From: Candidatus Woesebacteria bacterium
GTDB lineage: Bacteria; Patescibacteriota; Microgenomatia; UBA1400; MFAQ01
NCBI GenBank assembly: GCA_035389185.1
Contig: DAOORK010000001.1
Span: 331,825-395,824, forward strand
DNA length: 64,000 bases
Direction: 5' to 3'
Positions within the stretch are counted from its first letter, which is position 1; each line of letters opens with the position of its first letter. Below the pieces are notes generated by a model. It saw nothing but the letters and a program-made list of their open reading frames with translations, was not told the origin of the DNA and did not search any database. The position numbers were made by a program, and so were the translations under genes. Positions 1,364 through 59,927 of the stretch are shown here, piece by piece.

Positions 1364-3163
1364 TTAGTTTTGATTTATGCGAAAGGTTGTTTCCGGAGAA
1401 TATACCTTTTCTTCTTTTATGGAGATACCGGGAAGAGTGTTTCTCTCGATAGTGTCTTTATCGAGTTCCGGATTTAAGTAGCCGACGAATCTCGGGAAAT
1501 CATCAGGAATTGATTCCCGTATAATTCCATCAATTTTGTTGTCGCTCATTTTGGTAAGAGCAGAAAGAGCTGAAGTGTATCTTCCCCAATCGTACATGAG
1601 GCGCGGAATGACATAGACTGCTTGTCGGACTTTCTGAGTAGTATCAATTTTTTCGTTAATTTCAATCTTTTTGTCAGGACTGAACCCCGGTAACAGATAG
1701 TCCCATTTCCAAACTGTCTTCCATTGATTGTGCACTTTAAGGAAATTAATCTCCTGAGTATTAGAAATCTCGCCGTAATCGGTAAAGTATTTCGTATTGA
1801 GTTTTCCTTGATGAGTATTTTGTGTATCTACAACCTCGGTAATGGTGACTTCGATTTTTTTTACTTTTAGGCTGACGTAAAAACTCTCCATCGAAGAAAT
1901 GAATTTTGCTTCCGGAATATTGTTTCTGGTTTCGCTGTCGATACTTCGATACAGTTCGCGATAAGCCCTGGTATTGAGGAAACGACTAACTGCCCCTGCA
2001 TGTCCTGTAAGATCGTTCTTGGTGATTATGGGGAAAAGTAAAAGCAAATTGAGAATAACCAAAAGAAATAGTATGGGAATACGTTTTTTGAAAGCGTAGA
2101 GAATAAAAATGATGAACAAAGGGACGATCGGCATGAGATAACGAGCCCAAAAAGGAATAATCGTATTTATTCCAAGAATGATGAAGGTAAAAATGGTTAA
2201 GTACAGCAAGGAAAAATCTTTCTTTTTCAAAGCAATGACGAAGATGGTAATGGCCAAAATTACACCGAGAGGCAAAATGATCGACCAGTCTCCCAGACCG
2301 GTTCCAGTCGCGCCTACCCAAAAGCCCTTGTACGAATTCAAAAAGATTCCTCGCCACTGGTTTAGGTAGTCTACTTTATCAACCCCGGATTGGAGATAGA
2401 AGTTTAGTGGCTTCTCATGAAGTCTGAGCCATGGTATGGGATTGGGATGCTTGATAAAGTAACAAAAGAAAGAGAGAACGTAACCTCCAAAAACAGATCC
2501 AAGATAAAAAATTGTGTTTAAGATTTTTTTGGAACTTACAATCAAAGACAGAGTTAGCCCCAAAAGAAGAAGCAAGGGTGAATAAACACCAATTTTTGTA
2601 CCTGTGGCAAGGCCAAGAAAGACACCGGCGATAACCAGATCTTTGAGTTTGTGTCTTTTGAGAAACTTAACAAAGAATAGAGCGTTAAATAAAAAGAGAC
2701 TAGTAAGGGGTAAATCGAGCATGGTTTCTCTGATTTGGGTTGCCAGGAAAGGAGTCGTGACACAAAGAAGTAATCCAAAAAGAGCTGTAGTTCTGTTTTT
2801 GAATAGTTCCAAACACAAGAGATATATCGTTAACCCAGTGAGGAAGAAAAAACCCAGACTAATCCAGTATGGATTGCCAACTGTTTTTTCGGCGAGACCA
2901 TAGAGATACTTAGCAAGAGGGGGTACTTCAAAGTTGATGTTGAAAGGATTTTCGCCATTGGCTAACTGGAAACCTACGAACTTGTAGAGCTCACCATCGG
3001 AGATGCCTCTAGTACTTTGAGGAACATTCCATTGGGAGTTGTAGTAGTAGTTCTCAAAATACTCGGCGTCGTAGCGGAAAAAAAAGATCTCTCGGGAAAA
3101 ATAAAGAATTAAGGCGGTTACAAGACCGATGAGAATGAGGAGAATGATATTTATTTTCTTCAC
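1364..3163 (-). CDS. GT-C fold membrane glycosyltransferase (PMT/ArnT-like, GT39/GT83-like) with C-terminal extracytoplasmic domain
   Basis: 599 aa. The N-terminal ~380 aa hold about 10 hydrophobic helices and an early acidic loop (RYDAEYFENYY). A soluble C-terminal domain follows. The gene sits in the glycosyltransferase island. Confidence 0.55.
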   Translation of the reverse strand: MKKINIILLILIGLVTALILYFSREIFFFRYDAEYFENYYYNSQWNVPQSTRGISDGELYKFVGFQLANGENPFNINFEVPPLAKYLYGLAEKTVGNPYWISLGFFFLTGLTIYLLCLELFKNRTTALFGLLLCVTTPFLATQIRETMLDLPLTSLFLFNALFFVKFLKRHKLKDLVIAGVFLGLATGTKIGVYSPLLLLLGLTLSLIVSSKKILNTIFYLGSVFGGYVLSFFCYFIKHPNPIPWLRLHEKPLNFYLQSGVDKVDYLNQWRGIFLNSYKGFWVGATGTGLGDWSIILPLGVILAITIFVIALKKKDFSLLYLTIFTFIILGINTIIPFWARYLMPIVPLFIIFILYAFKKRIPILFLLVILNLLLLFPIITKNDLTGHAGAVSRFLNTRAYRELYRSIDSETRNNIPEAKFISSMESFYVSLKVKKIEVTITEVVDTQNTHQGKLNTKYFTDYGEISNTQEINFLKVHNQWKTVWKWDYLLPGFSPDKKIEINEKIDTTQKVRQAVYVIPRLMYDWGRYTSALSALTKMSDNKIDGIIRESIPDDFPRFVGYLNPELDKDTIERNTLPGISIKEEKVYSPETTFRINQN

Positions 3164-3182: not shown

Positions 3183-3926
3183 TTACCACTCACGGAAGTT
3201 TCTGGCCAGATAGATCCGGATCCGATTGTATGGGTACTTCAGAACAGTTTTGAAAGCTTTCTTGAGGGGATTCCCTGAACTTGCCTCAATGTTTTTCTCC
3301 CCGAGCTGGAAGTGATTATCGGGAAGTGTTACCATTTGGGAAACGTAGCCATCCATAAAGCCCCATTTTCGACCTAAATCATAAAAAATATCGCCACCGT
3401 TAAAGTTGATTTTTGATTTCATTTTTGGTCCGGCTAGTAAAGAAAAGCCAGTCTTGAAAAGAATATCTTTCATTTGGGATCTGGTCAGGACACTGTAGTG
3501 ATAATGCTCCGTGAGCCACTCTTTGGATGGCATTACCAATACAAGCCAACCATTTTTTACTAAATATTTTCTCCAGTGCATTAAAGCCAAAAAGGGCATA
3601 GTGGAGTGCTCCAAGACATTGCTGGCATAGATAACGTCAAACTTACCTATATCGCCAAGGTCATGCATATCACGAACATAAATCTTGGCACCATATTTGT
3701 CTTTACCTATCTTTGCTTCTTCTTCACTCGCAGTAATACCAACTGCCGTAAATTTGTGTTGATTCAACCAAGCTACCTCATGCCCATCTCCGCAACCGAT
3801 GACGAGAACTTTTTTATTTTTGGGCGGGATTAATTTTAGGAAACAATCCGGCCCTGCCACATTGCTAACAGACAATGGTTCATTTCTTTCTTTTTTGAAC
3901 CATTCATTATATAAAGTACTTTTCAT
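3183..3926 (-). CDS. Class I SAM-dependent methyltransferase
   Basis: 247 aa with a VLVIGCGDGHEVAWL glycine-rich SAM-binding motif and the downstream acidic residue pattern of Methyltransf_11/12. Confidence 0.7.
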   Translation of the reverse strand: MKSTLYNEWFKKERNEPLSVSNVAGPDCFLKLIPPKNKKVLVIGCGDGHEVAWLNQHKFTAVGITASEEEAKIGKDKYGAKIYVRDMHDLGDIGKFDVIYASNVLEHSTMPFLALMHWRKYLVKNGWLVLVMPSKEWLTEHYHYSVLTRSQMKDILFKTGFSLLAGPKMKSKINFNGGDIFYDLGRKWGFMDGYVSQMVTLPDNHFQLGEKNIEASSGNPLKKAFKTVLKYPYNRIRIYLARNFREW

Positions 3927-3930
3927 AGGA

Positions 3931-5463
3931 TTATTTTAGCTTGGGATCAATTTTTTCAATAATGGTGTTCCAGGGTAATGATATTTTTCGAGAAGATGCC
4001 GGAAAATTATTTCTCCAGTTGATTTCACCGCTCATTGTCGTCGGATCGTGTTCGATGATGAGAAAGATCAGATCATGATCCGATTCTTTTTTCTTTGTCC
4101 AAAAAACTGAGTTGTCTTTGATGTATTCCGGAACTCCTGGAAAATATGACATATCACTTGGTTGGTAACCATATTGTTTTGTTCCATACCACCAAAATAA
4201 ATATTGGAATCTTAAATCAAAAACTTGGGGAGTATAGGTATACACTTTGAAAGCACTTCCTGAGGCTTCATGATAAATATTATCAACAACAGTAAGCATG
4301 TTCTTGAGATTGGCCAAATCATTTGAATAACCTTTTTCAACCGACAGATAAGTAACTTTTGTGGAGATTGAGGAGAAAATAGTAAATCCAATAATGAATA
4401 CGGTAAAAAACTTACCCCATGATTTGGCATAAATAATGGTTAGTGCAGAGGCAAAAGCATATATGGAAAATGGTACAAGCCCATATAGATACCAATCTCG
4501 AATGTTAAAGGGAAATATCAGGAAAAATATTAAAAATGCAAAAATAATAAAAAGATTTGTTTTGATAAACTTTGTATTTTCCGAATCACGTTTTCCGAGT
4601 ATTAATGCGAGAGCAATTGTCGCAATAACAAATAACCAAGGAAGTTCGGTGGCTCCGGAAAAAATAGATTTGAAATAGGTAAATCGATTAAGGAGCATGT
4701 CAGATATGGAAAGTTTTTGACCAAGCCAGTCTGTTCCACCAGAGAACTCACCAAGCGTTGATCTGGTCATTAAAAAACCGTGACGAACTTCAAAGACAAT
4801 CTGAGGCAGAAGAGTAACAAAAAAACCTAAAATCAGAGGAATAAGTTGTCTGTCTTTTTTGGATCTTCGGGTATGTAAAAACAAGGAAATGGGGAAAAAT
4901 AAAATTCCGACTGCGGCTTCAACTTGAAGAATAAACCCACATAACAATCCCTCAAGGAATGACGATATTTTTGATTTGTAAAATATAAATAATGGAAGAA
5001 GTGCGGCGAAATAATAGGCTGAATTGGCATTCCAAGAAAATTTTATGGAAAAGGCAGCAATGGGAGAAAATAAAAATAATGAAGCAGAATAAAATGCCAA
5101 AATTTTATTCTTCTTTCTCAAAACAAAATAGATCACAAGAGAAATAATGTGTAAGGTAAGGATCTGGAATCTGACTAGCCATAAAGGATTCCCGCCGGAC
5201 AAGACAAAGGGGATGGAATTAAAATATGCCCAAAAGGGGCCGTAATATAAGCCAATAATATCTGTGGCCGGACCGATGAGGAGAGGTGTTCTGGTGAAGA
5301 TCATACGACGAATTTCGGCCATCTCTCTTGCCTGGTCGTAAGTAAAAGCAATGTCGAAGTCTTTTATTCTCAGGAAACTTAAAACCATCATGGTGATGAA
5401 TAAGACGGCGAAGATCAGGACATCCCAATATTTATTTATGAAATTACGAAACTTTATAAACAT
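3931..5463 (-). CDS. Polytopic membrane protein, putative GT-C-like glycosyltransferase
   Basis: 510 aa with more than 10 predicted TM helices and a C-terminal soluble domain. The glycosyltransferase context supports the call, but no motif was recognised with certainty. Confidence 0.4.
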   Translation of the reverse strand: MFIKFRNFINKYWDVLIFAVLFITMMVLSFLRIKDFDIAFTYDQAREMAEIRRMIFTRTPLLIGPATDIIGLYYGPFWAYFNSIPFVLSGGNPLWLVRFQILTLHIISLVIYFVLRKKNKILAFYSASLFLFSPIAAFSIKFSWNANSAYYFAALLPLFIFYKSKISSFLEGLLCGFILQVEAAVGILFFPISLFLHTRRSKKDRQLIPLILGFFVTLLPQIVFEVRHGFLMTRSTLGEFSGGTDWLGQKLSISDMLLNRFTYFKSIFSGATELPWLFVIATIALALILGKRDSENTKFIKTNLFIIFAFLIFFLIFPFNIRDWYLYGLVPFSIYAFASALTIIYAKSWGKFFTVFIIGFTIFSSISTKVTYLSVEKGYSNDLANLKNMLTVVDNIYHEASGSAFKVYTYTPQVFDLRFQYLFWWYGTKQYGYQPSDMSYFPGVPEYIKDNSVFWTKKKESDHDLIFLIIEHDPTTMSGEINWRNNFPASSRKISLPWNTIIEKIDPKLK

Positions 5464-5464
5464 T

Positions 5465-6547
5465 TCAGAGAAGTTTTTTTAGATTCGAAAAGAAGGATTC
5501 GTGTGAGTACAAGTGTGTTCGTTTTGAGGCAGTTGTTTGCATTTTTCGATACAGCTTTTCATCTTCGATGAGGAGTTTTGTTTTGGTAGCAATTTCTTGG
5601 GCGTTGGAGCAAAGGAATCCTGTACCTTCAGCTAGAATTTCTTTTTGACCACCCTTACCTATGACAATTGGGACACAACCAGAAGCCATACTCTCAACAG
5701 TGGTAATACCAAAATGTTCGACCCTTTCGGGATCAGTTTGTTCATCTATTTCAAAACCTGAAGCATGCCAAAAAAAACGTGATTTGGCATACAGACTCTT
5801 TAATTTATCAAAGCGGGGGTCAACGATAAACTTGATTGGCAACGACTTGGCTTTATCTTTAAGTTTTTCCAGTGTATCTGATTGACCATGACTTCCGCCC
5901 GTAAGAAACAGTTGATAGGCGGGAAAACTCTTATGTAAAATTTTAAAAGCATCAATCAAAACATCTTGGCGTTTAGGATGACTGGGTGAATCAAAACGAG
6001 CTACGGATAAAATTATGTTTTCCTTCTTTCCGGGATTGAAACTTTCAACATCGATTGGTGGATACAAAACAAAGCTTTTTTCTTTTGGAAAATGAGTTTC
6101 ATGAACTGCAGCAGTGAACCGTGAGTTGTAAACAAATTTATGAATAAAAAGAGTTTTAATTTTATTGATTAACGGACTACCGCCGATTGTCTTAAAAGGT
6201 ATCTGGAAATGAACTAGATTGTTTTTCGAAAACAAAAAGGGAAGACTGCCGTCACTGACCCAAAAGATAAGTCCGAAACGGACAGTAAACAGGAGTCTCC
6301 TTAACAAAGATGAGTGACCATGGCAGAGATTGTAGGCATTTTTATTTATTTTTAGTTGCGAAAGATCCAAACCAAAGCGTTCTTGTGCGGCAAGAAGAGT
6401 CTTATTGTCGTTCCAGGCTATTTCAACCGAGTAACCTGCAGATATCAGACCAATGGCAAAAGTAAGACAGTAACGTTCCCCACCTCCAAGAGTATCCAGA
6501 TATGGATCAAAAATTAAGGCTTTTTTCATAGTTTTTCTTCTTGCCAT
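5465..6547 (-). CDS. GT4 (GT-B fold, glycosyltransferase group 1) glycosyltransferase
   Basis: 360 aa. The C-terminal EX7E-type motif GFEIDEQTDPERVEHFGITTVESMASGCVPIV is diagnostic of retaining GT4 enzymes. Confidence 0.8.
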   Translation of the reverse strand: MARRKTMKKALIFDPYLDTLGGGERYCLTFAIGLISAGYSVEIAWNDNKTLLAAQERFGLDLSQLKINKNAYNLCHGHSSLLRRLLFTVRFGLIFWVSDGSLPFLFSKNNLVHFQIPFKTIGGSPLINKIKTLFIHKFVYNSRFTAAVHETHFPKEKSFVLYPPIDVESFNPGKKENIILSVARFDSPSHPKRQDVLIDAFKILHKSFPAYQLFLTGGSHGQSDTLEKLKDKAKSLPIKFIVDPRFDKLKSLYAKSRFFWHASGFEIDEQTDPERVEHFGITTVESMASGCVPIVIGKGGQKEILAEGTGFLCSNAQEIATKTKLLIEDEKLYRKMQTTASKRTHLYSHESFFSNLKKLL

Positions 6548-7335
6548 TCTTTCAATAAATCCTTATCAATTTTTTTGTAGGTATCTGAAAGTGATGGTTT
6601 CCTTTGGGCTTCCCACAATCTTTCATAGGTGAGAAATTTACTAAACATTTGATAAATGATCTCAATCCAACCTTCTGTTCCGTCTCTCCATAAACCCTGT
6701 TTTACCGCTCGGTACCAGAACTCTGTGAGCATGATGCGGACGAAACGCCAACCTTTCATTTGGGGGTGACCCGAGTCTAAAAGCATTCTGGCTTCAGACT
6801 TGGACCAGTTCATAGTGTTGGGTACTTTTTCATCAATATTTTTATGCGACAAGTGAACCATCTGATGCCTCAGTTCACCAATTGAACCTTCGATTTTGGG
6901 TTGCTCGTGAAGCTTTCCTTCCCAACGTTTAAGAGCCGTTTTTTTCATCAAACGAAGAACGAGCGGATCGCCCCAGTGAGTTAAGTGTTTGCCCAAGAAA
7001 ATCTCATAACGACTGATCGTGTATGCCTGATGTTGTGGTGTCTCGATTACAGACCTTATCTCGCGGGCAAGTTTAAGAGGAATTCGTTCATCAGAGTCGA
7101 GATACAAAAGCCAGTCACCTTTGGCCTCTTTTGCACCGTCGTTTCTCCACTTGGAAAAACTATCTCCTGTTGAGTGAACAATTTTGGCACCCAATTTGCG
7201 ACAAACTTCGACGGTGTTGTCGGTTGAACCCGAGTCCACCACAATAACTTCATCAGCAAATAAAGAAGTTTTTATGGCAAGTACTATTTCATCGGGAACA
7301 TTTTTGGCAAGAATGATGATCGATATTTTGGGCAT
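6526..7335 (-). CDS. GT2 family glycosyltransferase
   Basis: The listed 344-aa ORF overlaps the upstream gene. The conserved GT2 N-terminus begins at the internal Met (MPKISIIILAKNVPDE...VVDSGSTDNT), ATG at 7335..7333, directly after the neighbour's stop at 7338. The start was adjusted accordingly. Confidence 0.7.
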   Translation of the reverse strand: MPKISIIILAKNVPDEIVLAIKTSLFADEVIVVDSGSTDNTVEVCRKLGAKIVHSTGDSFSKWRNDGAKEAKGDWLLYLDSDERIPLKLAREIRSVIETPQHQAYTISRYEIFLGKHLTHWGDPLVLRLMKKTALKRWEGKLHEQPKIEGSIGELRHQMVHLSHKNIDEKVPNTMNWSKSEARMLLDSGHPQMKGWRFVRIMLTEFWYRAVKQGLWRDGTEGWIEIIYQMFSKFLTYERLWEAQRKPSLSDTYKKIDKDLLKEWQEEKL

Positions 7336-7337
7336 AG

Positions 7338-8243
7338 TTATTTTATCCAAGATCCTCCTCCTAATTTTCCCACAAAGAAGTCGCGAACAGCTTGTTTTTG
7401 GGCTTTGGTTCCTATAAAAAGCTTTTTGACCGCTTCCCTGAGAAGAGCAATCTTGGTTCGGGGACGGGCATAATCCATACCGAAAAGAAGACGATTGCGA
7501 GTGAGAAAATAATCGTTTAGAGGAGAACCAATACCCGAGCTTTGGGCGACTTTGTGCCAAAGTTTGATGTTTGAATCGACAACAAGTTTATAACCTGCTT
7601 TTTTGATGCGCATACCGAGATCCGAGTCTTCAAAATAGAGACAGTAACGTTCGTCAAAAAGGCCGACTTTTTTGAGAATTTCTGAGCGCACGATAAAAAG
7701 GCAACCGGTGATGAAATCGACCTCTCTCTGACCATCAAATTGACCTTTGTCGACCTCATTGACTCCAAGGTGGTTGGCATAGACGTTGTCCCAGTCGTAC
7801 TGACCTCCAGCGTACCAGATTACCTGCCCAAGTTCGTCTTTTTGATATTTATCTTCAAACTCGAACCCTTTGGCAAAATAAATGAGACCGCCGACAGCAC
7901 CAACATTTTTGTCAGATATTGGTGAGGCCAATATCTTGAGAATCAGGTCTTCCGGAACAACAGTGTCGTTGTTTATCATTACGATGATATCTGTTTCATC
8001 GAGAAGAGCCTTTTTGAACCCTAGATTATTACCGGCAGCAAAACCAACATTGCCGGGACTTTCAACGTATACTGCCTGAGGGTATTTGGAGAGTTTTTCC
8101 CTCAAATCAACCGAGCAGTCGTTGTCCACTACATATACTGTGGAGCTTACCCCCAAGGGTAAGGTGTTTTTTTCAAGCTGCTTCACAACATCGAGAGTGT
8201 CTTGAATACTGTGAAAGCTGACGGTGATAAAACCGATTTTCAT
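7338..8243 (-). CDS. GT2 family glycosyltransferase (rhamnosyltransferase-like)
   Basis: 301 aa with KIGFITVSFHS...VVDNDCS...IVMINNDTVV...CLYFEDSDL motifs of GT2. Confidence 0.75.
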   Translation of the reverse strand: MKIGFITVSFHSIQDTLDVVKQLEKNTLPLGVSSTVYVVDNDCSVDLREKLSKYPQAVYVESPGNVGFAAGNNLGFKKALLDETDIIVMINNDTVVPEDLILKILASPISDKNVGAVGGLIYFAKGFEFEDKYQKDELGQVIWYAGGQYDWDNVYANHLGVNEVDKGQFDGQREVDFITGCLFIVRSEILKKVGLFDERYCLYFEDSDLGMRIKKAGYKLVVDSNIKLWHKVAQSSGIGSPLNDYFLTRNRLLFGMDYARPRTKIALLREAVKKLFIGTKAQKQAVRDFFVGKLGGGSWIK

Positions 8244-10088: not shown

Positions 10089-11006
10089 TTACGACGACAG
10101 TTTACGTTTAATTTTGAGTAGGAAACGCTTGGTTTTTTTTGATTCAGATTGAATAAGAACTGTCATAAACCAATAACGAAGTTCTCGATATTTCTCCATG
10201 AATAGTTTTTGCCAGATCGGAGTAAAAACACTCGCTTTCTTTGGTTCATGACCCTCAGCTTGCCAAACTTTGAGATAAATAAGCATAACGGAGAACATTT
10301 GTAAGAAAGCAAGAACAAGTCCATGAAGACCATCCTTGTAGCCTTCTCCAGCAAAGAAACGGCTGATAAACTCACTGATTGGTTTGCCAATAATGTCTTT
10401 GGCGTCGAATTTGTAGCCAGAGTCAACAAGCTCTTTGGCTTGCTGGGTGGAGTAGCGAAGAGCTCTTTCAAAATACTCATCGATTGAGTTGTAATGATGA
10501 TGTTCAAGAGCATACTCTTCCTCCGGATCAAGGTTAATTCCGGTACCGGTGGTAATAGGAATTGAATGAATCTCGTTTTGCCATTCAACAGAGTCTTTTT
10601 TGAAAAAACGGATATTGTAATCTGGCCACCAACGTGAGTGTTGGATCCATTGGCCAAAGATAAGATTTTTTCTGGGAATCCTGACAAAGTCAACTGCTTC
10701 TTTTTGGGCGATCTCGATTAGTTTGGCGGCAAGTGATCTAGGAACTCGTTCGTCGGCATCAACAATAAGAACCCATTTCCCCACGGCTTTACTGATGGCG
10801 AAGTTTCTTGCCGGCTCAACATATCCGATCATCTTATGATCAAAGACTTTGTCGGTAAATCTCTTGGCAATTTCCTTGGTGGCATCCGAAGATTCCATAT
10901 CCACAACAATGATCTCGTCAGCAAAAGCAAGAGCTTTGAGACAGTCGGCGATGTTTCTGCTTTCGTTTCTGGTGTTAACAATAGCTGAAATATTTATCTT
11001 GGACAT
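10089..11006 (-). CDS. GT2 family glycosyltransferase
   Basis: 305 aa with ISAIVNTRNESRNIADCL...IIVVDMESSDAT...LIVDADERVP GT2 motifs. Confidence 0.75.
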   Translation of the reverse strand: MSKINISAIVNTRNESRNIADCLKALAFADEIIVVDMESSDATKEIAKRFTDKVFDHKMIGYVEPARNFAISKAVGKWVLIVDADERVPRSLAAKLIEIAQKEAVDFVRIPRKNLIFGQWIQHSRWWPDYNIRFFKKDSVEWQNEIHSIPITTGTGINLDPEEEYALEHHHYNSIDEYFERALRYSTQQAKELVDSGYKFDAKDIIGKPISEFISRFFAGEGYKDGLHGLVLAFLQMFSVMLIYLKVWQAEGHEPKKASVFTPIWQKLFMEKYRELRYWFMTVLIQSESKKTKRFLLKIKRKLSS

Positions 11007-14000
11007 TATTTTTTTTGATAAACCTTAATTTCTCCCGAGTCGTAGATTTTGGTTAGAGATAAATCGTATGGATTAAGGGTAATTTTTTGTAAAGGTGTCT
11101 CGTAAACATATTTTATGTTATTTTTCTGCAAAAAGTTGTTGGCCCAGACTTTATCTTTGGTGTTGTAAAAACGTTGAATGTCTCTTATTCTCGATTGGTA
11201 CTGGAAACCGGTAATATCCAGGTTGATCGTGTCAGAAAGAAATTCAGGCTGGCCAGAAAGGGCGGAGATATATGCTGAGGAAACATAGGCATACAGAGGT
11301 TTGGGACCAGCAACCCAGTCAGCCTTAACATAAATTGGCGAAAGCACTACCCCTTTTTCTTTTGATTTGAGAGTATCTAAAGCTTTCATTTCCGGATAAC
11401 TGACTCGAGAGGGTGAGGTGTTTCCGAGATAGTCTTTTAGGGTACCGATTGACGTAAAGGTTGCTACTAGAAGAAACAGTGTTATCACAAAGACGGCGAT
11501 TGTTTTTGTTCGGAAACGAGAAAGGAGTCGAGATAGATACTCGGCAGTGAATAATCCCAGGAAAAATAGAGAATAATACATGAACTGTATCGTATTCCAA
11601 GGATTAATTTTTTGAGTGATAAATAGAGGCAAAACAATTCCCAATACGATGATTACAGAAACGATCTTTCGAGAGATGTCTGTGTTTTTGTCTTTGGCGA
11701 TGGAGAAAAAACCAAAAATCCGCATACCTAAGTTTCCAACAAGGAAGGCCAAGACAGAGAAAAGGTTTACTGCAAATAACTTAAGAAAATTCCCAGATGC
11801 CTCATAAGCTTGCCAAGCCTCAACAAACTTTGGCCAGTAAAAACGATCATATGAGGCGAAGAGACTACGAGGAAACCAAAGAGGATCGAAGATAAAAGGC
11901 GAACCTGAGAAGGAGGATAGAGGTAGTGTAATTAAAGCTCCGATAATGCCAACCACAATCAAGATCGAGAGACGTCTGGTAAACAAGAGGGCAAGACAAA
12001 GAAGAACAAAGGCATAGATTTTTGTTTGAGCAAGCAAACCACCCAAAAGAGCGAGTTTAATAAATTGAAGTGCTTTTATTTTCCCTTCTGAAGGAAGATT
12101 AAGTAAAAATAATAAGAGAAAAATAAGCGAAAGAGCATAAGGTGGATTAAGAAAAATTGAGGCAGATTGGTTGGCCCAGAAAGATGATTCTCCTGAGAAA
12201 ACATTTTGGCTGGTCAGTAGTTTGGGTATGAAGCCAAAAGAGCCGGCAAAGAAGACAAGAAGAAAGCCAAAAATCTTGGTGGTTTTTGAATAGTGCCATT
12301 TTTCCATTAAACGGTCTAAGAGGAAAACGAGGGCAAAGCAAAACAAAATGGGTAAAAAACGAAAATAAAGGGTGCTCGCCGGAATATTAAAGAACCATGA
12401 TAAAAGACCGGAAAAATAATCAAAAACAAAGTGATAGTTGGTCAATTTTTCACCGGCATACTGAGGATGAGAAAGGTCTAGCGGATTTTGAGAAAACTTT
12501 TCAATTAGTGAAAGATGAAAAATAGCATCATGGCCGTTGGGTCCAAAATACCCTTGACCAAAGGAAAAATTGAGACCATTACGAAATACAGTCAAACAAA
12601 CAATAAAGGCACAGAGAAAACCGAATAAAAGAGTTGAGGGTATTTTTGGTTTGCCTTTCTTGATAATTTTTTTGATAAGTAGAACCAGAAAAAAGAATAT
12701 TACAACCCAGAATAACCAAGAGTACTGAGCATAGTCTTTAAGTGGCGTGTGGGGACTTGCCTGCCAAGTAGTTTCTTGTTTATTGTTTAGTATTTTTATA
12801 TCAGCGGATTCAATGACAGGAGCCACGATATTGACGAATTTGATCGAGTCCGGTAGAAGATATATTTTTTGATTACCATTTTCCAGAGTTATTTGCCAGA
12901 GATCCCATTGTTTGTCATAGGTAGTTTTGAATTGAGAAAGATCAATATTGAGAGTAAGTTCCGATCCTGGTGTTTTGACCGAATCAATAATGGCTGGTAT
13001 TTCGGAATAAAGATCGGTTGTTTGATTGGGAACAGCAAAATAATCTTCATATATTTCCCGATTGTAGACGCGGAAATCAATTATCTGGGTTTGACCGTTA
13101 GCGGTCTTTAAGCCAATACGATAGCGATAACTTTGGTACCAGAACACCTCACCATTTTCCCTATTGGTGGAGTCTAGGGTTCGATAAAAGTATGTGGGGC
13201 TACTTTCCGGATAATAAGCTTTTACGATGTTCCCCAGCTCGGCTAAACTGACATACTCAAGATTATATTTTTCTCTATTTTTTTCCAGTAAACGATAAGT
13301 GCTGCTAATCTCTTTTTGATACAAATCAAGGCTGTAGTCATTTTCTAATCCCAGATTGATATGAGAAAGTTCATTGAATCCTTTCTGGGTATATTGAGCC
13401 AACAATTTTTCAAAATAGGTTGTATCAAGACCATAAGATAGATAATCATTAACCTGAACAGAGTAAGAAAATGCACCGGCTGTTCCGTAAAAGTTATAAA
13501 GGTCTCTTTGGGCCCATCGAACCATAATTAGGTTAATACGATTCTTAGCACTAGCGGCAGGGATCAATGAGTTATTTTTGTCCGGATAATAAGGACTGCC
13601 TACATAGCCTCCCCAAATGCGATAGTGATCGGTGCTGTATTGGTCATCGCAGTTCATAGCAGTAAGAATTGAGTATCTCGTTTGAAGATACTGAAGGGAA
13701 TAGCTATCAAGATCCCAAGCAGATACAGCAGTCGGATAAAAACCAAAACGATCAAAGAAAGCCTTCATATAAGTATCAATTAGTTTCAAACGATCTTTTT
13801 GGGAATAGCCGGATAAGAAAATACGATTGGGATTGGACATGTATGTTCCAGGTGGATAAACAACACCTGCTTGGGCGGTGAGGGATGGTGTGATTTCCAG
13901 AAAAGCTCCGAGAGATTGATTCTTGTCAGTTTCAAAGAGATCAGCGAAATAGGCTGAGATAGTAGCACTCGAAACTGCATCGAAACGGAGAAGCCAGGTA

Positions 14001-14200
14001 ACGGGATAAGCCGAATGAGTGGACTCTTGATACTGGAATCTAGGTAGATCCAGGGGTGTTTGATTTGGCTCTGACCAACCTTCATAACCTCTCACCGGAT
14101 TGGAAATAGTGACGAAGGCATTCTTTCCGAAAGCTAGTGTTGATTGAGGAAACAACAAAAGGATTAAGGGGACAAGTAGAGGAAGAAGTTTCTTAAACAT
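11006..14200 (-). CDS. Large fused envelope protein: signal peptide, ~500-aa extracytoplasmic domain, ~14-TM core and C-terminal domain (putative GT-C-like glycosyltransferase or polysaccharide polymerase)
   Basis: The ORF of up to 1096 aa probably starts at the internal Met (MFKKLLPLLVPLILLLFPQSTLAFG), which gives a classic signal peptide and avoids a 104-nt overlap with the flippase gene. The central region is very hydrophobic. A soluble C-terminal tail follows. Confidence 0.45.
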   Translation of the reverse strand: MFKKLLPLLVPLILLLFPQSTLAFGKNAFVTISNPVRGYEGWSEPNQTPLDLPRFQYQESTHSAYPVTWLLRFDAVSSATISAYFADLFETDKNQSLGAFLEITPSLTAQAGVVYPPGTYMSNPNRIFLSGYSQKDRLKLIDTYMKAFFDRFGFYPTAVSAWDLDSYSLQYLQTRYSILTAMNCDDQYSTDHYRIWGGYVGSPYYPDKNNSLIPAASAKNRINLIMVRWAQRDLYNFYGTAGAFSYSVQVNDYLSYGLDTTYFEKLLAQYTQKGFNELSHINLGLENDYSLDLYQKEISSTYRLLEKNREKYNLEYVSLAELGNIVKAYYPESSPTYFYRTLDSTNRENGEVFWYQSYRYRIGLKTANGQTQIIDFRVYNREIYEDYFAVPNQTTDLYSEIPAIIDSVKTPGSELTLNIDLSQFKTTYDKQWDLWQITLENGNQKIYLLPDSIKFVNIVAPVIESADIKILNNKQETTWQASPHTPLKDYAQYSWLFWVVIFFFLVLLIKKIIKKGKPKIPSTLLFGFLCAFIVCLTVFRNGLNFSFGQGYFGPNGHDAIFHLSLIEKFSQNPLDLSHPQYAGEKLTNYHFVFDYFSGLLSWFFNIPASTLYFRFLPILFCFALVFLLDRLMEKWHYSKTTKIFGFLLVFFAGSFGFIPKLLTSQNVFSGESSFWANQSASIFLNPPYALSLIFLLLFLLNLPSEGKIKALQFIKLALLGGLLAQTKIYAFVLLCLALLFTRRLSILIVVGIIGALITLPLSSFSGSPFIFDPLWFPRSLFASYDRFYWPKFVEAWQAYEASGNFLKLFAVNLFSVLAFLVGNLGMRIFGFFSIAKDKNTDISRKIVSVIIVLGIVLPLFITQKINPWNTIQFMYYSLFFLGLFTAEYLSRLLSRFRTKTIAVFVITLFLLVATFTSIGTLKDYLGNTSPSRVSYPEMKALDTLKSKEKGVVLSPIYVKADWVAGPKPLYAYVSSAYISALSGQPEFLSDTINLDITGFQYQSRIRDIQRFYNTKDKVWANNFLQKNNIKYVYETPLQKITLNPYDLSLTKIYDSGEIKVYQKK

Positions 14201-15677
14201 GTTTAATTTTAAAGTAGTTGATGGTGTTGGTGATAAAGGTAATGCCTTCAACAAGAATAATGGTACCAAAATAAATGGCCGCGGCAAAAACACCAATTAA
14301 GGTTAAACGTAAAACTGAGGTGCCATAGTGAGAAAGAATAGCCAGAAAACCACTCATAACTAGGGTTCCCAGTAAAGGCGTCTTGAGGATGCGCCAGAGA
14401 TTAAATTGAACATATTTACGAGCCATGAAGATTGTGACTATCGAAGATGTGGCAATAATGGCAACGGCGTAAGCAACACCTATGTAACCGTATTTAAGTG
14501 AGAGGAAGGGCATGGTAATCCAAGTCAAACCGGTCCACATGAGCATTAGTTTGAAAGTTGACTTGATGTGACCAGTGGCATTTAAGAGGTTGGTGAGACT
14601 GGTAGAAATACTGGCCCAGGCGGAGTTGTAGAGATAAATATATAAAGGAATAAGAGCGGGTAACCATTTGGTGTATTTGGGAATAATATCAACAAGAGGC
14701 GCGGCAAAGAAACCGAGACCGGCAAGAATTGGAAAAATAGCCAGACACATATATTTGAGACTAACTTCAACGGCACGAGCTAATTTTTCTTTATCATGCT
14801 GTAAACGAGCAAAGGTGGGAAAGGATACTTTGGTGAGGTTGTCCATGACAATTCTAAGTGGCAGGCCTGCCCACTTGCTGGCCCAACCAATATATCCTAG
14901 GCCGGTTGTGCCGATGATCTTGGTGAGAATAATGGTCATGCCATCATCTTTGAGAACTGACAGAAAAGTGTTTGCCTGATAAGGAACTCCAAACCTAAGT
15001 AATGATTTAAGAGACTGACGGTAAATACCAATGATTGGTTTCCAGGGATAAACAAGGTACATGGCGATTAGGCCAACGACTCCTCGACCCAGTACGGCGT
15101 AAGTAAAAGCGTTGATACCATATCCCTTCCAGGCGAAAAATACAGCAACAAAGTTGAAAACAAGAGTTTCAAGAATTTGAGGCAAAATTAATTTGTTGAA
15201 CTTAATCTCTCTTTCAAGCATGATAGAAGGAATGGTTTTGAGGGAACTTAAAAAGAGCGATATGCCCATGGCATAGAGTAGATATAGACCACTCTGATCC
15301 ATGTGGTAAGTAGTCTTAATAAAAGGACTGACGATAAATAAAACGAGTAAAAGCGACAAAACTAGAATCTGCTGAATTGAAAAAGTGGTAGCGAGATCCT
15401 CTTTGGTAATATTTTCTTTTTTTTGGATAAGAGCGGCGGCAAGACCAACATCAGAAAAGTAACCAAGAAAGTTAACTACGGAACTAACAAGATAATAAAC
15501 ACCATAGATATTGGGGTCGAGAAAAATTGTTAGAGCAAGGGTGGCAATAAAAGAAATAATTTGAATCACAAAAGTGCGAGAAATTAAGGCCAACACTCCC
15601 GATATTGAACGGCGTTTGACTTCTTGATACTCAAGTATTTCCTGATTGTCAGGGATGTCGTCGAGCATAAAGTGCAA
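14193..15677 (-). CDS. Oligosaccharide/polysaccharide flippase (Wzx-like, MOP superfamily)
   Basis: 494 aa with about 12-14 TM helices and the architecture and size of polysaccharide biosynthesis flippase family proteins. Confidence 0.65.
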   Translation of the reverse strand: MHFMLDDIPDNQEILEYQEVKRRSISGVLALISRTFVIQIISFIATLALTIFLDPNIYGVYYLVSSVVNFLGYFSDVGLAAALIQKKENITKEDLATTFSIQQILVLSLLLVLFIVSPFIKTTYHMDQSGLYLLYAMGISLFLSSLKTIPSIMLEREIKFNKLILPQILETLVFNFVAVFFAWKGYGINAFTYAVLGRGVVGLIAMYLVYPWKPIIGIYRQSLKSLLRFGVPYQANTFLSVLKDDGMTIILTKIIGTTGLGYIGWASKWAGLPLRIVMDNLTKVSFPTFARLQHDKEKLARAVEVSLKYMCLAIFPILAGLGFFAAPLVDIIPKYTKWLPALIPLYIYLYNSAWASISTSLTNLLNATGHIKSTFKLMLMWTGLTWITMPFLSLKYGYIGVAYAVAIIATSSIVTIFMARKYVQFNLWRILKTPLLGTLVMSGFLAILSHYGTSVLRLTLIGVFAAAIYFGTIILVEGITFITNTINYFKIKHV

Positions 15678-22377: not shown

Positions 22378-23493
22378 ATGAAACGAGTTTATTTAGGCAT
22401 TGCCGTATTACTATTTTCCTTACTGGTTTGGTTACCTTTTGTTCTTAAGGTCAAATTGCCAGCCTGGGGTTTGGATTTTTCCGAAGGCACGAAAATTTTG
22501 TGGCAAAACTATGACGGACCAAATTATCTAATTGTGGCAAAAACTTGGTACAACAAAGCAGATATTCTTAACAAATTTTCAAATCCTCTGCCAGCGGAGT
22601 ATTATCCAGCTCACTTTCCTTTGTATCCGGCGATTATCTCGGTTTTTGATCAGTTCTTAAAAGGCCCAACGGCAATGTTGCTAAGCAGTCTTTTAGGTAC
22701 AGTCCTTTTGTATATCGTATTTTTCCGATATCTAACCCATTTTAAATTGAGTAAAAATCCACTTTGGGCATGTTTGGTCTTTTTGATATTACCTGCCAGA
22801 TGGATTGCTGTTCGTAGTGTTGGTTCTCCTGAACCATGGTTTTTACTTTTTGTAGTCACCAGTATCTTTTTTTTCCGTAAGGAAAAATACTGGATGGCAG
22901 GACTGTTTGGGTTGCTTGCTCAACTGACAAAAAGTCCGGCAATTATTTTATTGGGTGCGTACGGCATTTATGCCTTGGTGGAGTCGATCAAAAGCAAAAA
23001 AATTCAGTTTAAATACTGGCCATTGTTGATCCAAGCATTAGCCATTCCAGCCTTGTTCTGGTTTTATGGGATGCAGACCGGGGATTTTTGGGCATATTTC
23101 CACAGTGGTGACAATATTCATCTTTTTTGGCCTCCCTTTTCCGTGTTTACACCTTTGGGACAGCATTGGGTAAATAGTTTTTGGCTTGAAGATGTGATTT
23201 GGACTTGGTTAATTTTTGGCTTAGGAATATTAAAGCTTTGGGGGAAAAAGGCCAAAGTGGAGACATATTTTGCCGGATTATTTTTTCTATCCACTCTCTT
23301 TGTAGCTCATAGAGACATCAGTCGTTATATTCTTCCCATTGCCCCTTTTGTTTTGATTGGTTGGGACAACCTTATCCAAAAGAAAGAGTTCAAAATTATG
23401 TTGGGAATTCTTCTTATTCCAGTTATCTTGTATAGCTGGAACTTCATATTAAACAATATGGCTCCGGTAGCTGACTGGACACCGTACCTCTAA
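22378..23493 (+). CDS. Polytopic membrane protein (putative GtrC/GT-C-like glycan transferase)
   Basis: 371 aa with about 10 TM helices and no soluble domain. It is convergent with, and adjacent to, the GtrA-GtrB fusion gene. Confidence 0.35.
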   Translation: MKRVYLGIAVLLFSLLVWLPFVLKVKLPAWGLDFSEGTKILWQNYDGPNYLIVAKTWYNKADILNKFSNPLPAEYYPAHFPLYPAIISVFDQFLKGPTAMLLSSLLGTVLLYIVFFRYLTHFKLSKNPLWACLVFLILPARWIAVRSVGSPEPWFLLFVVTSIFFFRKEKYWMAGLFGLLAQLTKSPAIILLGAYGIYALVESIKSKKIQFKYWPLLIQALAIPALFWFYGMQTGDFWAYFHSGDNIHLFWPPFSVFTPLGQHWVNSFWLEDVIWTWLIFGLGILKLWGKKAKVETYFAGLFFLSTLFVAHRDISRYILPIAPFVLIGWDNLIQKKEFKIMLGILLIPVILYSWNFILNNMAPVADWTPYL

Positions 23494-23494
23494 T

Positions 23495-24649
23495 TTATTT
23501 TTTCTTTTTCCAGATGATGAGGTTGTACATCAACCAGTTGTAAGGCAGAACCAAGAAAACGATGATAAAGGGGAGCAACAGTTGACGATTGAGATGGGTG
23601 AGAGAGACAAGACCGGCGCCGGAAATTGTTTGGATAAGTAAGGCTCCGACAGAAGTAAGGTTGAACTGAAGAAATTTATTGATAGTAGCAATGACTCCGT
23701 GAATCTTGTCTGATTTGAAAGTCCAGAGATTGTTCCAGGTAAAGTTACTGATGATGGCCAGCTCGGTGCTTAAGAGCCAACTGAGCCATTCATTGTGTGT
23801 AAGATTGCTAAAAACGGCTAAGCCGATGGCATTAACAAGGTAACCGATAAAACCAACAGTACCAAACTTAACGAACTTTTGGGTACCTGGATCGTTCCAA
23901 CGAAGAAGGAAAACTGAACGAAAAATATCTTTGGCTGTTTTGGATTCGATTTTGGACTCACCTTTGGTACGAAGACCAAACTGTAGAGGAATTTCTTTGA
24001 CTTTGGCTCCAAGAGTAACCATTTTATAGAGGAACTCAAGTTTGTAACCAAAACTTCGGGAATAAAGATGGTCCATGTCCATGGTGTCCACAAAGCCCTT
24101 AACACGAGAGGCCTTGAGACCGGTTGTGGGATCTGTAATTTTGAAGAACATTTTTGTCGGAAAGAAAAGAACAAAACGGGCGACTAAACCACCAACTTCA
24201 CTAAAAAAGATGCGTTTGAAACCCCAACCCTTGGGGTTTGATCCCCCATCGATTTTTCGAGAACCCAAAACATAGTCATACCCTTTGGAGATTTCTTTTA
24301 ACAATACCGGTATGTCTTTGGGGGGATGTTGAAAGTCGGCATCAAATTCAATGATGACATCTGCCCCGAGAACTTTCATGGCGTGACGGAAACCTTTTAC
24401 ATAAGCACCACCGATACCGGCTTTGGTAGGATTAAGATAAAGATTGAGGTTTGGATACTCTTTTTGTTTTTTCTGAACAATTTTGTAGGTACCGTCGGGG
24501 GAGGTGTCATCAACAACAAGAAGTTTGCACTGCCAGTCGATTATCTTGGGAAATATTTTTCCACATAGAGTGTCGATCATCTTGCCAATGGTACCGGCTT
24601 CGTTGTAGGTCGGGATGACAACAACGGCAACAGGGAGTTTCTTCATCAT
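23495..24649 (-). CDS. Polyprenol-phosphate glycosyltransferase fused to a C-terminal GtrA-like membrane domain
   Basis: 384 aa. The N-terminal GT2 domain (VVVIPTYNEAGTI...LVVDDTSPDGT) is followed by four TM helices (KFVKFGTVGFIGYLVNAIGLAVF...), typical of the GtrA family. Confidence 0.7.
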   Translation of the reverse strand: MMKKLPVAVVVIPTYNEAGTIGKMIDTLCGKIFPKIIDWQCKLLVVDDTSPDGTYKIVQKKQKEYPNLNLYLNPTKAGIGGAYVKGFRHAMKVLGADVIIEFDADFQHPPKDIPVLLKEISKGYDYVLGSRKIDGGSNPKGWGFKRIFFSEVGGLVARFVLFFPTKMFFKITDPTTGLKASRVKGFVDTMDMDHLYSRSFGYKLEFLYKMVTLGAKVKEIPLQFGLRTKGESKIESKTAKDIFRSVFLLRWNDPGTQKFVKFGTVGFIGYLVNAIGLAVFSNLTHNEWLSWLLSTELAIISNFTWNNLWTFKSDKIHGVIATINKFLQFNLTSVGALLIQTISGAGLVSLTHLNRQLLLPFIIVFLVLPYNWLMYNLIIWKKKK

Positions 24650-27674: not shown

Positions 27675-28437
27675 AATTTAAATCAATATCTATCAGTGAG
27701 TCCATCCACTTTAACTGTTGGGACTTAATTTTTTGGGCTGCTTCGGATTTTTCTGAAAAATAGTTCTCGCTTTCAATGTTGGCTAAATCCTCTTCAGAAA
27801 GAAGGGTGTTGGCCAGTTCGTCTATTGAAGCGTTGATACTTTTCCCAAGTTTTTGCAGATCCTCAATTTTTGTCTTTAAAGGAGTTGATATTGGTGTGGC
27901 AAGTTTTGGCAAAATAATATTAAGGGCGTTATCCATTTCTTGCTGGAAATGAACCAGTAAGGATAGTTTGTAAGCCACGACTCCAGCACGGGAACTGTGA
28001 TCGTGTTCGATAACGTTGGTGTTGTATTCTTGGGTAAAGTTTTTAAGATCGGCTGGGGTAGCAATTGATTGTGACTTTAGAGCTTCATTACTAAAAAAAT
28101 TCTTGGCCTTGGTGAGGGAGAAAATAATAGGGTCGATGTTTTTGTAATTTGCTTTAGTATTTTTTATCAGAGAAAGCAGGTACTCCGCGTAGTTTGATTT
28201 TGCCAGATCTCTGGCGGAAAGAGTTTCTTTGGCTGCCAAAATTGCTTTTTGCTGATTATCTAGTGTGGGGTTACTTATGTAATCGCTTTTAAGTAATTTG
28301 TATTCGATATATTTTCCTCGATAGAGACTATATTGATATTCGTAATCTGATTTGGCATCTGCCAAAACAGTCGTTGTCCCAAAACAAAAAAAGATAGATG
28401 GTAGTATAAGCAAAAGCAGCTTTGAAAAAAGCTTCAT
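27661..28437 (-). CDS. Hypothetical secreted protein
   Basis: 258 aa with a signal peptide (MKLFSKLLLLILPSIFFCFGTTTVLA) and helical composition. Confidence 0.4.
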   Translation of the reverse strand: MKLFSKLLLLILPSIFFCFGTTTVLADAKSDYEYQYSLYRGKYIEYKLLKSDYISNPTLDNQQKAILAAKETLSARDLAKSNYAEYLLSLIKNTKANYKNIDPIIFSLTKAKNFFSNEALKSQSIATPADLKNFTQEYNTNVIEHDHSSRAGVVAYKLSLLVHFQQEMDNALNIILPKLATPISTPLKTKIEDLQKLGKSINASIDELANTLLSEEDLANIESENYFSEKSEAAQKIKSQQLKWMDSLIDIDLNYAHS

Positions 28438-29333
28438 TACTTTAAGGATAACCCCTGACCGATAAGTATTTCAACCACAGTCTGCCAAGCAGAAAAATGA
28501 AGACCCAATTTTTTCTCGGTAGCAACTGTTTTTAGACCGCCAAAAACCGGGTAACGGCTTTTGTTGGTTTGGGTTGCTAGAAAGGTATGGATCGAAGAAG
28601 ATTTGATGACTGAAGGATCACCCCCAAGCTGATCGACCACGTAGGTAATTAATTCAAAGGGAGTTGTGGTATCGGAGCAACAGTGGAAGATACCAGTTTT
28701 TTCTGTATCGATAATTTTTTCCAGTGTCTGGGCAACTTCATCGATGAAGGCAATACAGATTTGCTGGTCATTGAACAGAGGATACATAGTTCCATCGACA
28801 TATTTTTTGACTGCGCCACGAATATAGTCTAGCTTGGCGTCAAACTGGGCACGGACGGGATAAATGATGCGAAGAATTGTACCTCCGTGGTTGAGGACCA
28901 CTTTTTCGGCACGATTTTTGGTCCAACCATACCAAGTGAGATTTTCGGGCGAGTCGGGAGTTTTATCGGTTTCAGAATAAGGACCGGGGTGTTCAACACT
29001 GCCAGGGAAAACCATGTCGGTACTGATGTGAATAATTTTTTTGGAAGGAAAAGCATTGACGAGATTTTCGGTACCTTCAACATTAATTTTCCAAGCGGGG
29101 CCAGTGTTATCCCCTGTTTGAGTTTCTGCGGCATTGACGTCGGTAAAAGCGGCAAAGTTTACAATCCATTCGGGATTAAACTTGTCAATGGCATTTTTAA
29201 CTGAGCTCGGGTCGGTAAGGTCAAATTCCGGATATTCGGGAGTGAAAAAATCGTATTTATTCTGGGCAAGTTCGATAAAGCGAGAACCAACAAGTCCTGA
29301 GGCTCCGGTGACTAAAACTTTTATTTTGTTCAT
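28437..29333 (-). CDS. rfbD: dTDP-4-dehydrorhamnose reductase
   Basis: 298 aa with KVLVTGASGLVGSRF, an NAD(P)-binding Rossmann fold and an HISTDMVF motif. It sits in an rfbABCD cluster. Confidence 0.75.
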   Translation of the reverse strand: MNKIKVLVTGASGLVGSRFIELAQNKYDFFTPEYPEFDLTDPSSVKNAIDKFNPEWIVNFAAFTDVNAAETQTGDNTGPAWKINVEGTENLVNAFPSKKIIHISTDMVFPGSVEHPGPYSETDKTPDSPENLTWYGWTKNRAEKVVLNHGGTILRIIYPVRAQFDAKLDYIRGAVKKYVDGTMYPLFNDQQICIAFIDEVAQTLEKIIDTEKTGIFHCCSDTTTPFELITYVVDQLGGDPSVIKSSSIHTFLATQTNKSRYPVFGGLKTVATEKKLGLHFSAWQTVVEILIGQGLSLK

Positions 29334-29336
29334 AGA

Positions 29337-29900: not shown

Positions 29901-29909
29901 TTTGTTTAA

Positions 29910-33762: not shown

Positions 33763-33769
33763 AAGACTA

Positions 33770-59850: not shown

Positions 59851-59924
59851 GGTCCCGTCGTCTAGTGGTCTAGGACATTTGGTTCTCATCCAAAAGATCG
59901 TGGGTTCGATTCCCACCGGGATCA
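59851..59924 (+). tRNA. tRNA-Glu (anticodon CUC)
   Basis: Hand-folded cloverleaf: acceptor GGTCCCG/CGGGATC, D-arm TCGTCTAGTGGTCTAGGACA (tRNA-Glu-like), anticodon stem TTTGG/CCAAA with loop TTCTCAT (CTC), T-arm GTGGG-TTCGATT-CCCAC, discriminator A. CCA is not encoded. Confidence 0.85.
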
Positions 59925-59927
59925 CAA

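Follow-up and report, generated by a model that had tools for sequence, protein, structure and literature searches.

What is the task of a protein that joins a large secreted domain to a polytopic membrane core and a second soluble domain, and whose gene is lodged between those for a flippase and a glycosyltransferase? The question is raised by a 64,000-nucleotide stretch of Candidatus Woesebacteria bacterium DNA (GenBank assembly GCA_035389185.1, contig DAOORK010000001.1, forward-strand positions 331,825 to 395,824; hereafter the window), where such a gene occupies positions 11006..14200 on the minus strand. An identical sequence (100%) is annotated as a hypothetical protein in a metagenome-assembled genome of Candidatus Woesebacteria. 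Judging from its predicted fold and its gene neighborhood, it is likely to belong to a multicomponent glycosylation system coupled to Wzx, comparable to GacK/GacL or WpsG/WpsJ, and to act there as the extracytoplasmic GT-C transferase, probably in charge of the last, outside-cell step in building a surface sugar coat.

The open reading frame (ORF) extends over 11006..14296 and yields 1096 residues if read from a TTG codon, or 1064 residues (plus stop) if read from an internal ATG at 14200. The consensus of 86 homologous sequences starts at the internal Met (MxKK...), the ATG overlaps the stop codon of the upstream Wzx gene (cATGTTTAA) and a signal peptide follows; on these grounds the ATG was taken to be the true start. 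The TTG at 14296 was discarded, as homologues begin at the ATG and use of the TTG would create an overlap of about 100 nt with wzx. A first-pass annotation, made from the sequence alone, had already moved the start to the internal Met and had placed a cleavable signal peptide behind it, and both proposals hold up. The signal peptide (residues 1-24, 14129..14200, minus strand) has a typical form, reading MFKK-LLPLLVPLILLLF-PQSTLA with cleavage before FG (MFKKLLPLLVPLILLLFPQSTLA/FG), and its hydropathy peak spans residues 5-23. It is followed by an aromatic-rich domain of about 465 residues, about 12 membrane helices and a C-terminal domain of about 138 residues. The long polytopic region had been described initially as a 14-helix core; model DSSP and hydropathy reduce the predicted count to about 12. 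Hydropathy, DSSP on the model and the positive-inside rule concur in giving both soluble domains a predicted location outside the cell. At the other end of the gene, the stop codon shares bases with the start codon of the GT2 gene downstream (TAATG). Thus, the genes for Wzx, the target protein and GT2 are arranged as if translationally coupled.

The structures of the N-terminal domain and of the C-terminal half were predicted as separate models, each with an 87-sequence alignment, the latter reaching a predicted local distance difference test (pLDDT) score of 93.6. The first helix of the C-half (residues ~493-515, 12656..12724, minus strand; helix 8-28 of the model, also apparent from hydropathy) is a linker that brings the chain back to the cytoplasm, where the sequence KKIIKKGKPK comes next. 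This helix is specific to the fusion, being present before the core in fused proteins; most of the relatives that consist of core and C-terminal domain alone start about 5-20 residues from the core, and some carry a different N-terminal extension of about 50-100 residues. The core itself (residues ~520-926, 11423..12643, minus strand) is predicted to comprise about 11 helices (522-925). Comparison of the C-half model with solved structures gave the highest scores for STT3B (17.6), ALG12 (16.9), AglB (16.8) and AftA (16.3, with 433 residues aligned), followed by Pmt4 and PglB (15.7 each), ArnT (14.7), AftD (12.3) and EmbA (7.8). Foldseek returned a probability of 1.00 for STT3A, DPY19, AglB, AftA, PglB and AftD, the best TM-score (0.56) being that of AftA. 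The agreement between the two methods assigns the modelled core to the GT-C glycosyltransferase fold, and the cap above it is AglB-like. Oligosaccharyltransferase (OST)-type enzymes and the GT-Cs that transfer monosaccharides are not told apart by these scores. The first-pass annotation had likened the layout of the protein to AftD/EmbC-type arabinosyltransferases: the GT-C fold stands, with the correction that OST-type and PMT/ArnT-type enzymes are as close or closer. The polysaccharide polymerase-export fusion that it had offered as another possibility finds no direct support.

The cap (residues ~927-1064, 11009..11422, minus strand), seen originally as a C-terminal soluble domain, is an extracytoplasmic α/β domain resembling the C-terminal globular domain of AglB. 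The motif WWD[YWF]G is absent from the whole target sequence. The segment lying in its place reads PKPLYAYVSSAYISALSG...D990, within a conserved series composed of P966, Y972, AY977ISALSG and D990.

Residues that are invariant or nearly so mark the core as well. They include D558 and H562 in the motif GPNGHDAIFH of the first external loop (residues 553-562, 12515..12544, minus strand), Y589-H590, E671, F674 and W675 (GES.FW), N685, K727, D785, G822-N823, R827, and Q863, N869 and Q872 (NPWNTIQF). Most of these residues are common to fused proteins and to 58 stand-alone proteins, and all the conserved polar ones fall on loops that the predicted topology places outside. Neither the 87 fused nor the 59 mainly stand-alone sequences show any variation at D558, which the inferred topology places in the extracytoplasmic loop that follows the first core helix, where GT-C enzymes have a conserved acidic residue (modified DXD). 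An hhalign comparison with the PTPS_related/PMT_2-type GT-C family encoded by neighboring genes gave a probability of 72% (E 3e-5), against 47% for two accepted PMT_2 families compared with each other, and so points to a remote relation in sequence. The alignment pairs HD558 with the MHDD motif of the neighbor family, and E671..W with its E..W; the former match makes D558 the likely catalytic Asp.

No curated family claims the protein. Neither the whole protein nor its halves nor nine diverse homologues had a significant match in sequence searches of Pfam (E <= 0.1), NCBIfam and the PDB, in line with the initial remark that no known family could be assigned. A weak match to UPF0158 (E 0.09) was dismissed, and so was a match to TIGR04370 (E 0.0057) that lies far below the cut-off. 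PF13231, which five neighboring genes do match, is not detected in the target at E <= 0.1. The target does not match the family models of the Emb/AftD group (GT53; DUF3367), nor is that group the closest to it in fold. Ten stand-alone relatives, looked up by exact sequence, bore no informative names, and a literature search on GT-C enzymes in the Candidate Phyla Radiation and on Patescibacteria oligosaccharyltransferases found nothing relevant.

Homologues and their genomic context, to which the first-pass annotation had pointed as worth exploring, revealed a conserved cassette. Synteny was counted over 81 distinct loci, in 71 of which the adjacency of Wzx could be assessed. A wzx gene lies directly upstream in 70 of the 71, a related GT2 gene directly downstream in 68 of the 81, and the order Wzx - GT-C - GT2 persists down to about 31-35% identity. 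The N-terminal domain is fused to the core in 45 loci and not fused in 36; in one locus (L076, Blackburnbacteria, 3878-7629) it is encoded by a separate adjacent gene, giving the series wzx, N-domain gene, gene for core plus C-terminal domain. This split form is the sole exception to Wzx adjacency. The constant unit is therefore Wzx, the GT-C protein made of core and C-terminal domain, and GT2; the existence of fused, unfused and split forms argues that the N-domain is linked functionally to the GT-C yet accessory. In the window, the upstream partner (14193..15677, minus strand) is a Wzx/MOP-family flippase (PF13440, Polysacc_synt_3, E 1.4e-51), whose NCBIfam matches to a MOP flippase (E 8e-37) and an O-glycosylation flippase (E 2e-31) both fall under the curated cut-offs. 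The downstream partner (10089..11006, minus strand) is a GT2 of GT-A fold (PF00535, E 1.3e-17). The location of the gene between a GT2 and a flippase is thus as initially reported. In most loci, wzx is preceded by two PMT_2/PTPS_related GT-C genes. Two loci show further variants: one has a second, stand-alone paralogue of core and C-terminal domain in tandem after the fusion (L003, 11522-13540), and in the other (L041, Collierbacteria UBA12020, 4512-7402) the gene is broken up into three ORFs that overlap one another, a sign of frameshifts or of errors in the assembly.

The family is sizeable. The initial search found 156 homologues at E <= 0.001, and every full-length homologue examined has both halves. 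A search of 1.84 billion representatives at 50% identity returned 2548 clusters at E <= 0.001, 1340 of them at E <= 1e-30. Architectures were surveyed in 144 newly fetched sequences among the best 150 proteins of the latter search: about 30 are fused from end to end, 63 (520-700 residues) comprise just the membrane core and C-terminal domain, and 35 have the N-domain either alone or followed by a two-helix hairpin and a domain similar to the C-terminal one. Proteins P0243, P0229 and about 20 others combine a signal peptide, a DUF3863/3864-like domain, a two-helix hairpin and a tail of about 120 residues without any GT-C core; a profile of the C-terminal domain recognises this tail in five of the proteins so organised. 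Like the target, relatives made of the N-domain only start with a hydrophobic leader. Profiles of the core and of the C-terminal domain found no paralogue among the other ORFs of the window. In GTDB species genomes, 390 stretches were confirmed to encode a relative; the best 80 of these 390 loci all belong to Microgenomates lineages (Collier-, Woese-, Shapiro- and Blackburnbacteria), save for records that look mislabelled. The latter (L005, L007, L009, L017, L037, L052 and many more), titled "uncultured Pseudomonadales", "Gammaproteobacteria", "Spirochaetia bacterium" or "Clostridia bacterium", hold the Microgenomates cassette and show up to 66% identity to the C-half of the target, and their taxonomic labels are probably wrong. 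All named relatives are from Microgenomates. The protein is best described as a member of a new, unnamed GT-C family, known so far from Microgenomates, that presents a new combination of domains in a known type of system.

The N-terminal domain, described from the outset as rich in aromatic residues and possibly carbohydrate-binding or glycosidase-like, bears this out in composition and fold: F, W and Y account for 15.6% of residues 25-492 (Tyr alone for 9.2%), and its fold is that of a glycoside hydrolase/deacetylase-type barrel. The model (pLDDT 95.2) shows a (β/α)-barrel distantly related to DUF3863 (residues ~25-330, 13211..14128, minus strand), of the glycoside hydrolase/deacetylase superfamily and predicted to be extracytoplasmic, and a DUF3864-like β-sandwich (residues ~331-485, 12746..13210, minus strand), indicated by DSSP strands from residue ~313 of the N-domain model onward and by alignment with PDB entry 3lm3. 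The distal part of the sandwich is the most variable region among homologues, and BLAST alignments of distant ones break at ~415-495. When the family profile was run against PDB sequences, 3lm3 was the single solved protein to match (E 0.002, on the N-domain); it shares the two-domain fold with the model over 368 aligned residues at 16% identity. This entry is BDI_3119 from Parabacteroides distasonis (DUF3863 + DUF3864), deposited as a "putative glycoside hydrolase/deacetylase", and is a 449-residue chain without a fused membrane enzyme, whereas the target domain is joined to a GT-C core. The target does not reach the gathering scores of PF12979 and PF12980 (DUF3863 and DUF3864), and the PF12979 model gives no match to its N-domain even at E <= 10; the same model finds the relative P0229 at E 0.061 and the 3lm3 fragment at E 7e-136, and a few homologues bear precomputed PF12979 matches. 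A literature search on DUF3863, 3LM3 and BDI_3119 found nothing relevant.

Conserved residues of the N-domain (R37, D74, E102, R137, D142, D165, Q187, D233 and E286) are retained in the stand-alone N proteins. No His occurs in the invariant or >= 90% conserved columns, nor at the positions checked in relatives made of the N-domain only, which excludes the Asp-His-His metal site of a CE4 deacetylase. The target has no Pfam match to PF01522 (Polysacc_deac_1) or Glyco_hydro_57 either. The pattern of conservation fits a glycosidase-like acid pair, and the acidic residues D74, E102, D165, D233 and E286, in a domain that has no His metal site, favour a putative hydrolase or transglycosylase chemistry over CE4 deacetylation. 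The motif W-x-L-D165-S-Y-S is reminiscent of the nucleophile motifs of GH38 and GH57, a lead rather than a result. The deacetylase ArnD also differs in working on the cytoplasmic side, the target domain being placed outside. A conventional CE4 protein (Polysacc_deac_1, E 4.4e-9) is encoded at 60741-61700 (minus strand) of the window, so the genome also has a canonical deacetylase.

The closest parallels to this set of genes are found in Gram-positive wall polysaccharide systems. As reviewed for rhamnose-rich wall polysaccharides (PMC9574508), the Wzx-family flippases GacK and WpsG deliver a C55-P-sugar or C55-P-oligosaccharide to the GT-C enzymes GacL, WpsJ and WpsI, a group of enzymes without conserved sequence that only their fold reveals, as is also the case for the target. 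GacL with GacK in Streptococcus pyogenes, and WpsJ/WpsI with WpsG in Lactococcus lactis, consist, as does the target locus, of a polytopic GT-C beside a 12-helix Wzx-family flippase and a GT-A (GT2) enzyme, in a cluster for cell-wall glycans that has dTDP-rhamnose genes in its vicinity; flippase, GT-C and GT-A are co-encoded here as in the GacIJKL and WpsABGJ sets. The likeness is one of fold and gene context. The target differs in having a DUF3863/3864-like domain of about 465 residues and an AglB-like C-terminal domain, neither of which PMC9574508 describes for GacL or WpsJ. No small activator like GacJ was seen at the target locus, although no search was aimed at it.

By analogy with these systems, cytoplasmic GT-A enzymes, including the coupled GT2, would build a sugar or short oligosaccharide on polyprenyl phosphate, and the coupled Wzx flippase would carry the lipid-linked glycan to the outer leaflet. 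There, the GT-C core would take the lipid-linked donor, with D558 of the first external loop as catalytic Asp and E671, K727, D785 and R827 as candidates for phosphate or metal binding, and would pass the glycan to an envelope acceptor, for which a polysaccharide of the wall or some other surface glycoconjugate is the most likely candidate. The AglB-like domain would cap the active site and help to choose the acceptor, and the fused N-domain might trim, remodel or hold the glycan outside the cell. Context relevant to the donor comprises the coupled flippase and the polyprenyl-phosphate sugar synthase-like GT2s nearby. Three GT2s lying 5-10 kb from the target gene resemble ArnC, PgfS, PpgS or dolichyl-phosphate hexose transferases, one of the three being fused to a GtrA domain, and no priming phosphoglycosyltransferase (Bac_transf, Glycos_transf_4) is present among the Pfam-scanned ORFs of at least 150 residues in the window. 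For these reasons, a monophosphate-linked donor is mildly favoured.

Several observations weigh against assigning the protein to a Wzx-coupled system of this kind. One is the failure of all curated families to detect it, another the weakness of its sequence links to known GT-C families, which peak at the 72% hhalign probability given above. In addition, the coupled GT2 has GmaR, SunS and TarS as its nearest solved relatives and does not resemble GtrB, DPMS or GacI-type polyprenyl-phosphate sugar synthases, so that the classic "three-component" picture does not map one-to-one onto the locus. Finally, as the N-domain is unfused in 36 of the 81 loci, it must be dispensable for the core reaction.

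Among the competing explanations, the one that survives best is an oligosaccharyltransferase-like reaction, in which a whole Wzx-flipped, undecaprenyl-diphosphate-linked oligosaccharide would be transferred to protein (S-layer, pilin or sortase substrate) at an acceptor motif different from that of AglB, PglB and STT3. The target shares with these GT66 enzymes a conserved Asp in the first external loop, and D558, E671 and D785, invariant acidic residues that each lie on a different external loop, may be a counterpart of the PglB metal-binding triad. Tight coupling to a Wzx whose best NCBIfam matches are flippases of diphosphate-linked glycans, the O-glycosylation flippase included, goes in the same direction. 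However, the target lacks WWDYG; neither STT3 nor solved OSTs are found by sequence, Pfam giving no match at E <= 0.1 and the PDB none at E <= 10 with either a single sequence or a profile; and membership in GT66 (PF02516) was rejected on both counts. Moreover, its core is predicted to have about 11 helices as opposed to 13 in OSTs, which also lack an N-terminal hydrolase-like domain; ALG12, AftA and Pmt4 attain nearly equal structure scores; and the sole link at the sequence level leads to the PMT_2/PTPS_related-type family. A further point on this side is that no priming enzyme, which would make a diphosphate-linked glycan, turned up among the Pfam-scanned ORFs of at least 150 residues in the window, although one could be encoded elsewhere in the genome. 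We regard such a reaction as unlikely. The same low expectation applies to a bolder version, whereby core and AglB-like domain would be a bacterial offshoot of the OST lineage minus WWDYG, ligating a Wzx-flipped oligosaccharide to a non-sequon acceptor (surface protein or cell wall) while the N-domain edits the glycan.

Other GT-C groups resemble the target in part. AftA, AftB, AftD and EmbA/B/C likewise associate a GT-C core with a C-terminal periplasmic domain, AftA being the enzyme that aligns the most residues with the C-half, and AftD and Emb share the presence of large extracytoplasmic carbohydrate-related domains. The extra domains of mycobacterial arabinofuranosyltransferases are carbohydrate-binding modules, not a barrel of the glycoside hydrolase/carbohydrate esterase type, and the target has no Pfam match to Arabinose_trans or DUF3367. 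The PMT_2, PTPS_related and ArnT families (PF13231, PF10131), represented by five genes around that of the target, differ from it in the C-terminal domain and do not have its invariant motifs GPNGHD, NYH and NPWNTIQF.

The slot immediately after wzx, which the target gene fills, often holds polymerase genes, and many polysaccharide synthases are accompanied by glycoside hydrolases, which the N-domain resembles. Both facts would suit a polymerase of GT-C type that joins flipped repeat units as Wzy or WpsI does, with the N-domain setting chain length or release. A precedent exists in WpsI, a GT-C polymerase that uses a C55-P-oligosaccharide (PMC9574508), and the discarded TIGR04370 model is that of an oligosaccharide repeat-unit polymerase. 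That match, however, scores 15.7 bits against a cut-off of 40 and spans about 100 residues; there is no Wzy, WaaL or SEDS-type protein among the fold matches listed, no chain-length regulator gene was seen in the cassette, and nothing tells polymerisation from single transfer. Altogether, a polymerase appears improbable. Still harder to sustain is the idea that the N-domain alone is enzymatic, as a membrane-anchored extracellular polysaccharide hydrolase or esterase, and the GT-C part a non-catalytic scaffold like PIG-U/GAB1. The occurrence of the N-domain with a two-helix hairpin and a C-terminal-like domain but no GT-C core speaks in its favor; yet about 12 invariant or near-invariant polar residues on external loops of the core are kept in the 58 stand-alone proteins devoid of the N-domain, and it is the core, not the N-domain, that stays constant between Wzx and GT2 in the cassette. 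We judge this very improbable. A transporter or exporter unrelated to glycan synthesis, an outcome envisaged in the first-pass annotation and brought to mind by the polytopic nature of the protein and by the MFS, NHE and ABC proteins in the tail of the Foldseek results, is effectively ruled out by the fold searches, where transporter matches have probabilities <= 0.25.

The three-gene unit is part of a glycan cluster of about 24 kb, which is very large for a genome of roughly 0.9 Mb. Bases 1-24650 contain seven GT2 genes, one GT4 gene, a methyltransferase gene, five PMT_2 GT-C genes (PF13231; 1364-3163, 8312-9862, 15649-17361, 17361-18875 and 20160-21644) and genes for two polytopic proteins without firm family. 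The first of the PMT_2 proteins (1364-3163, minus strand, 599 residues) ends in a MecA_N / NTF2-like domain, detected with an E value (2e-4) that just equals the Pfam cut-off, and is another GT-C with an unusual extracytoplasmic add-on. One of the two unassigned proteins (3931-5463, minus strand, 510 residues) has about 9-10 hydrophobic segments and a soluble tail of about 130 residues; it gives no Pfam or NCBIfam match and could be GT-C-like. The other (22378-23493, plus strand, 371 residues) weakly matches AZOBR_p60025, "cell surface glycopolymer formation" (E 8.6e-14, below cut-off). At 23495-24649 (minus strand), a GT2 is fused to a GtrA/DPMS transmembrane domain, combining a polyprenyl-phosphate sugar synthase with a small flippase-type module; this fusion could supply the PMT_2-type GT-Cs independently of Wzx.

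Beyond the cluster, a complete-looking dTDP-rhamnose operon (28437-31991, minus strand) encodes an RmlD-like protein, an RmlC-like epimerase, a 4,6-dehydratase and a nucleotidyltransferase, and suggests a rhamnose-containing surface polymer. At 33187-37293 (minus strand), a sortase gene lies beside that of an 865-residue surface protein, which combines thrombospondin type 3 and DUF4215 repeats with a prealbumin-like domain of SpaA type and ends in a membrane anchor. This protein may be an adhesin or pilin attached by the sortase, and it could conceivably be a target of glycosylation. The sole RNA gene found in the window is that of tRNA-Glu (CTC; 59851-59925, plus strand), no other Rfam family reaching the gathering score.

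Assignment of the protein to a Wzx-coupled transferase is mostly an incremental advance, the fold and the logic of the system being already known. Bacteria of the Candidate Phyla Radiation are uncultured or hard to culture, and the chemistry of their envelope is largely unknown. The Wzx - GT-C - GT2 cassette is among the most strictly conserved gene orders observed across Microgenomates; defining the family offers annotators a handle and experimenters a three-gene unit. Because the C-terminal domain is AglB-like yet devoid of WWDYG, one may ask what relationship links OST-type enzymes to the rest of the GT-C families. Should the protein be, after all, an offshoot of the OST lineage, it would represent a new class of "ligase-plus-editor" enzyme and would place the orphan DUF3863 fold for the first time in a functional setting, that of bacteria whose genomes are tiny. 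In any event, the fused and split forms of the gene tie the DUF3863/DUF3864 fold, whose structure has been known since 2010, to lipid-linked glycan transfer, its first functional association.

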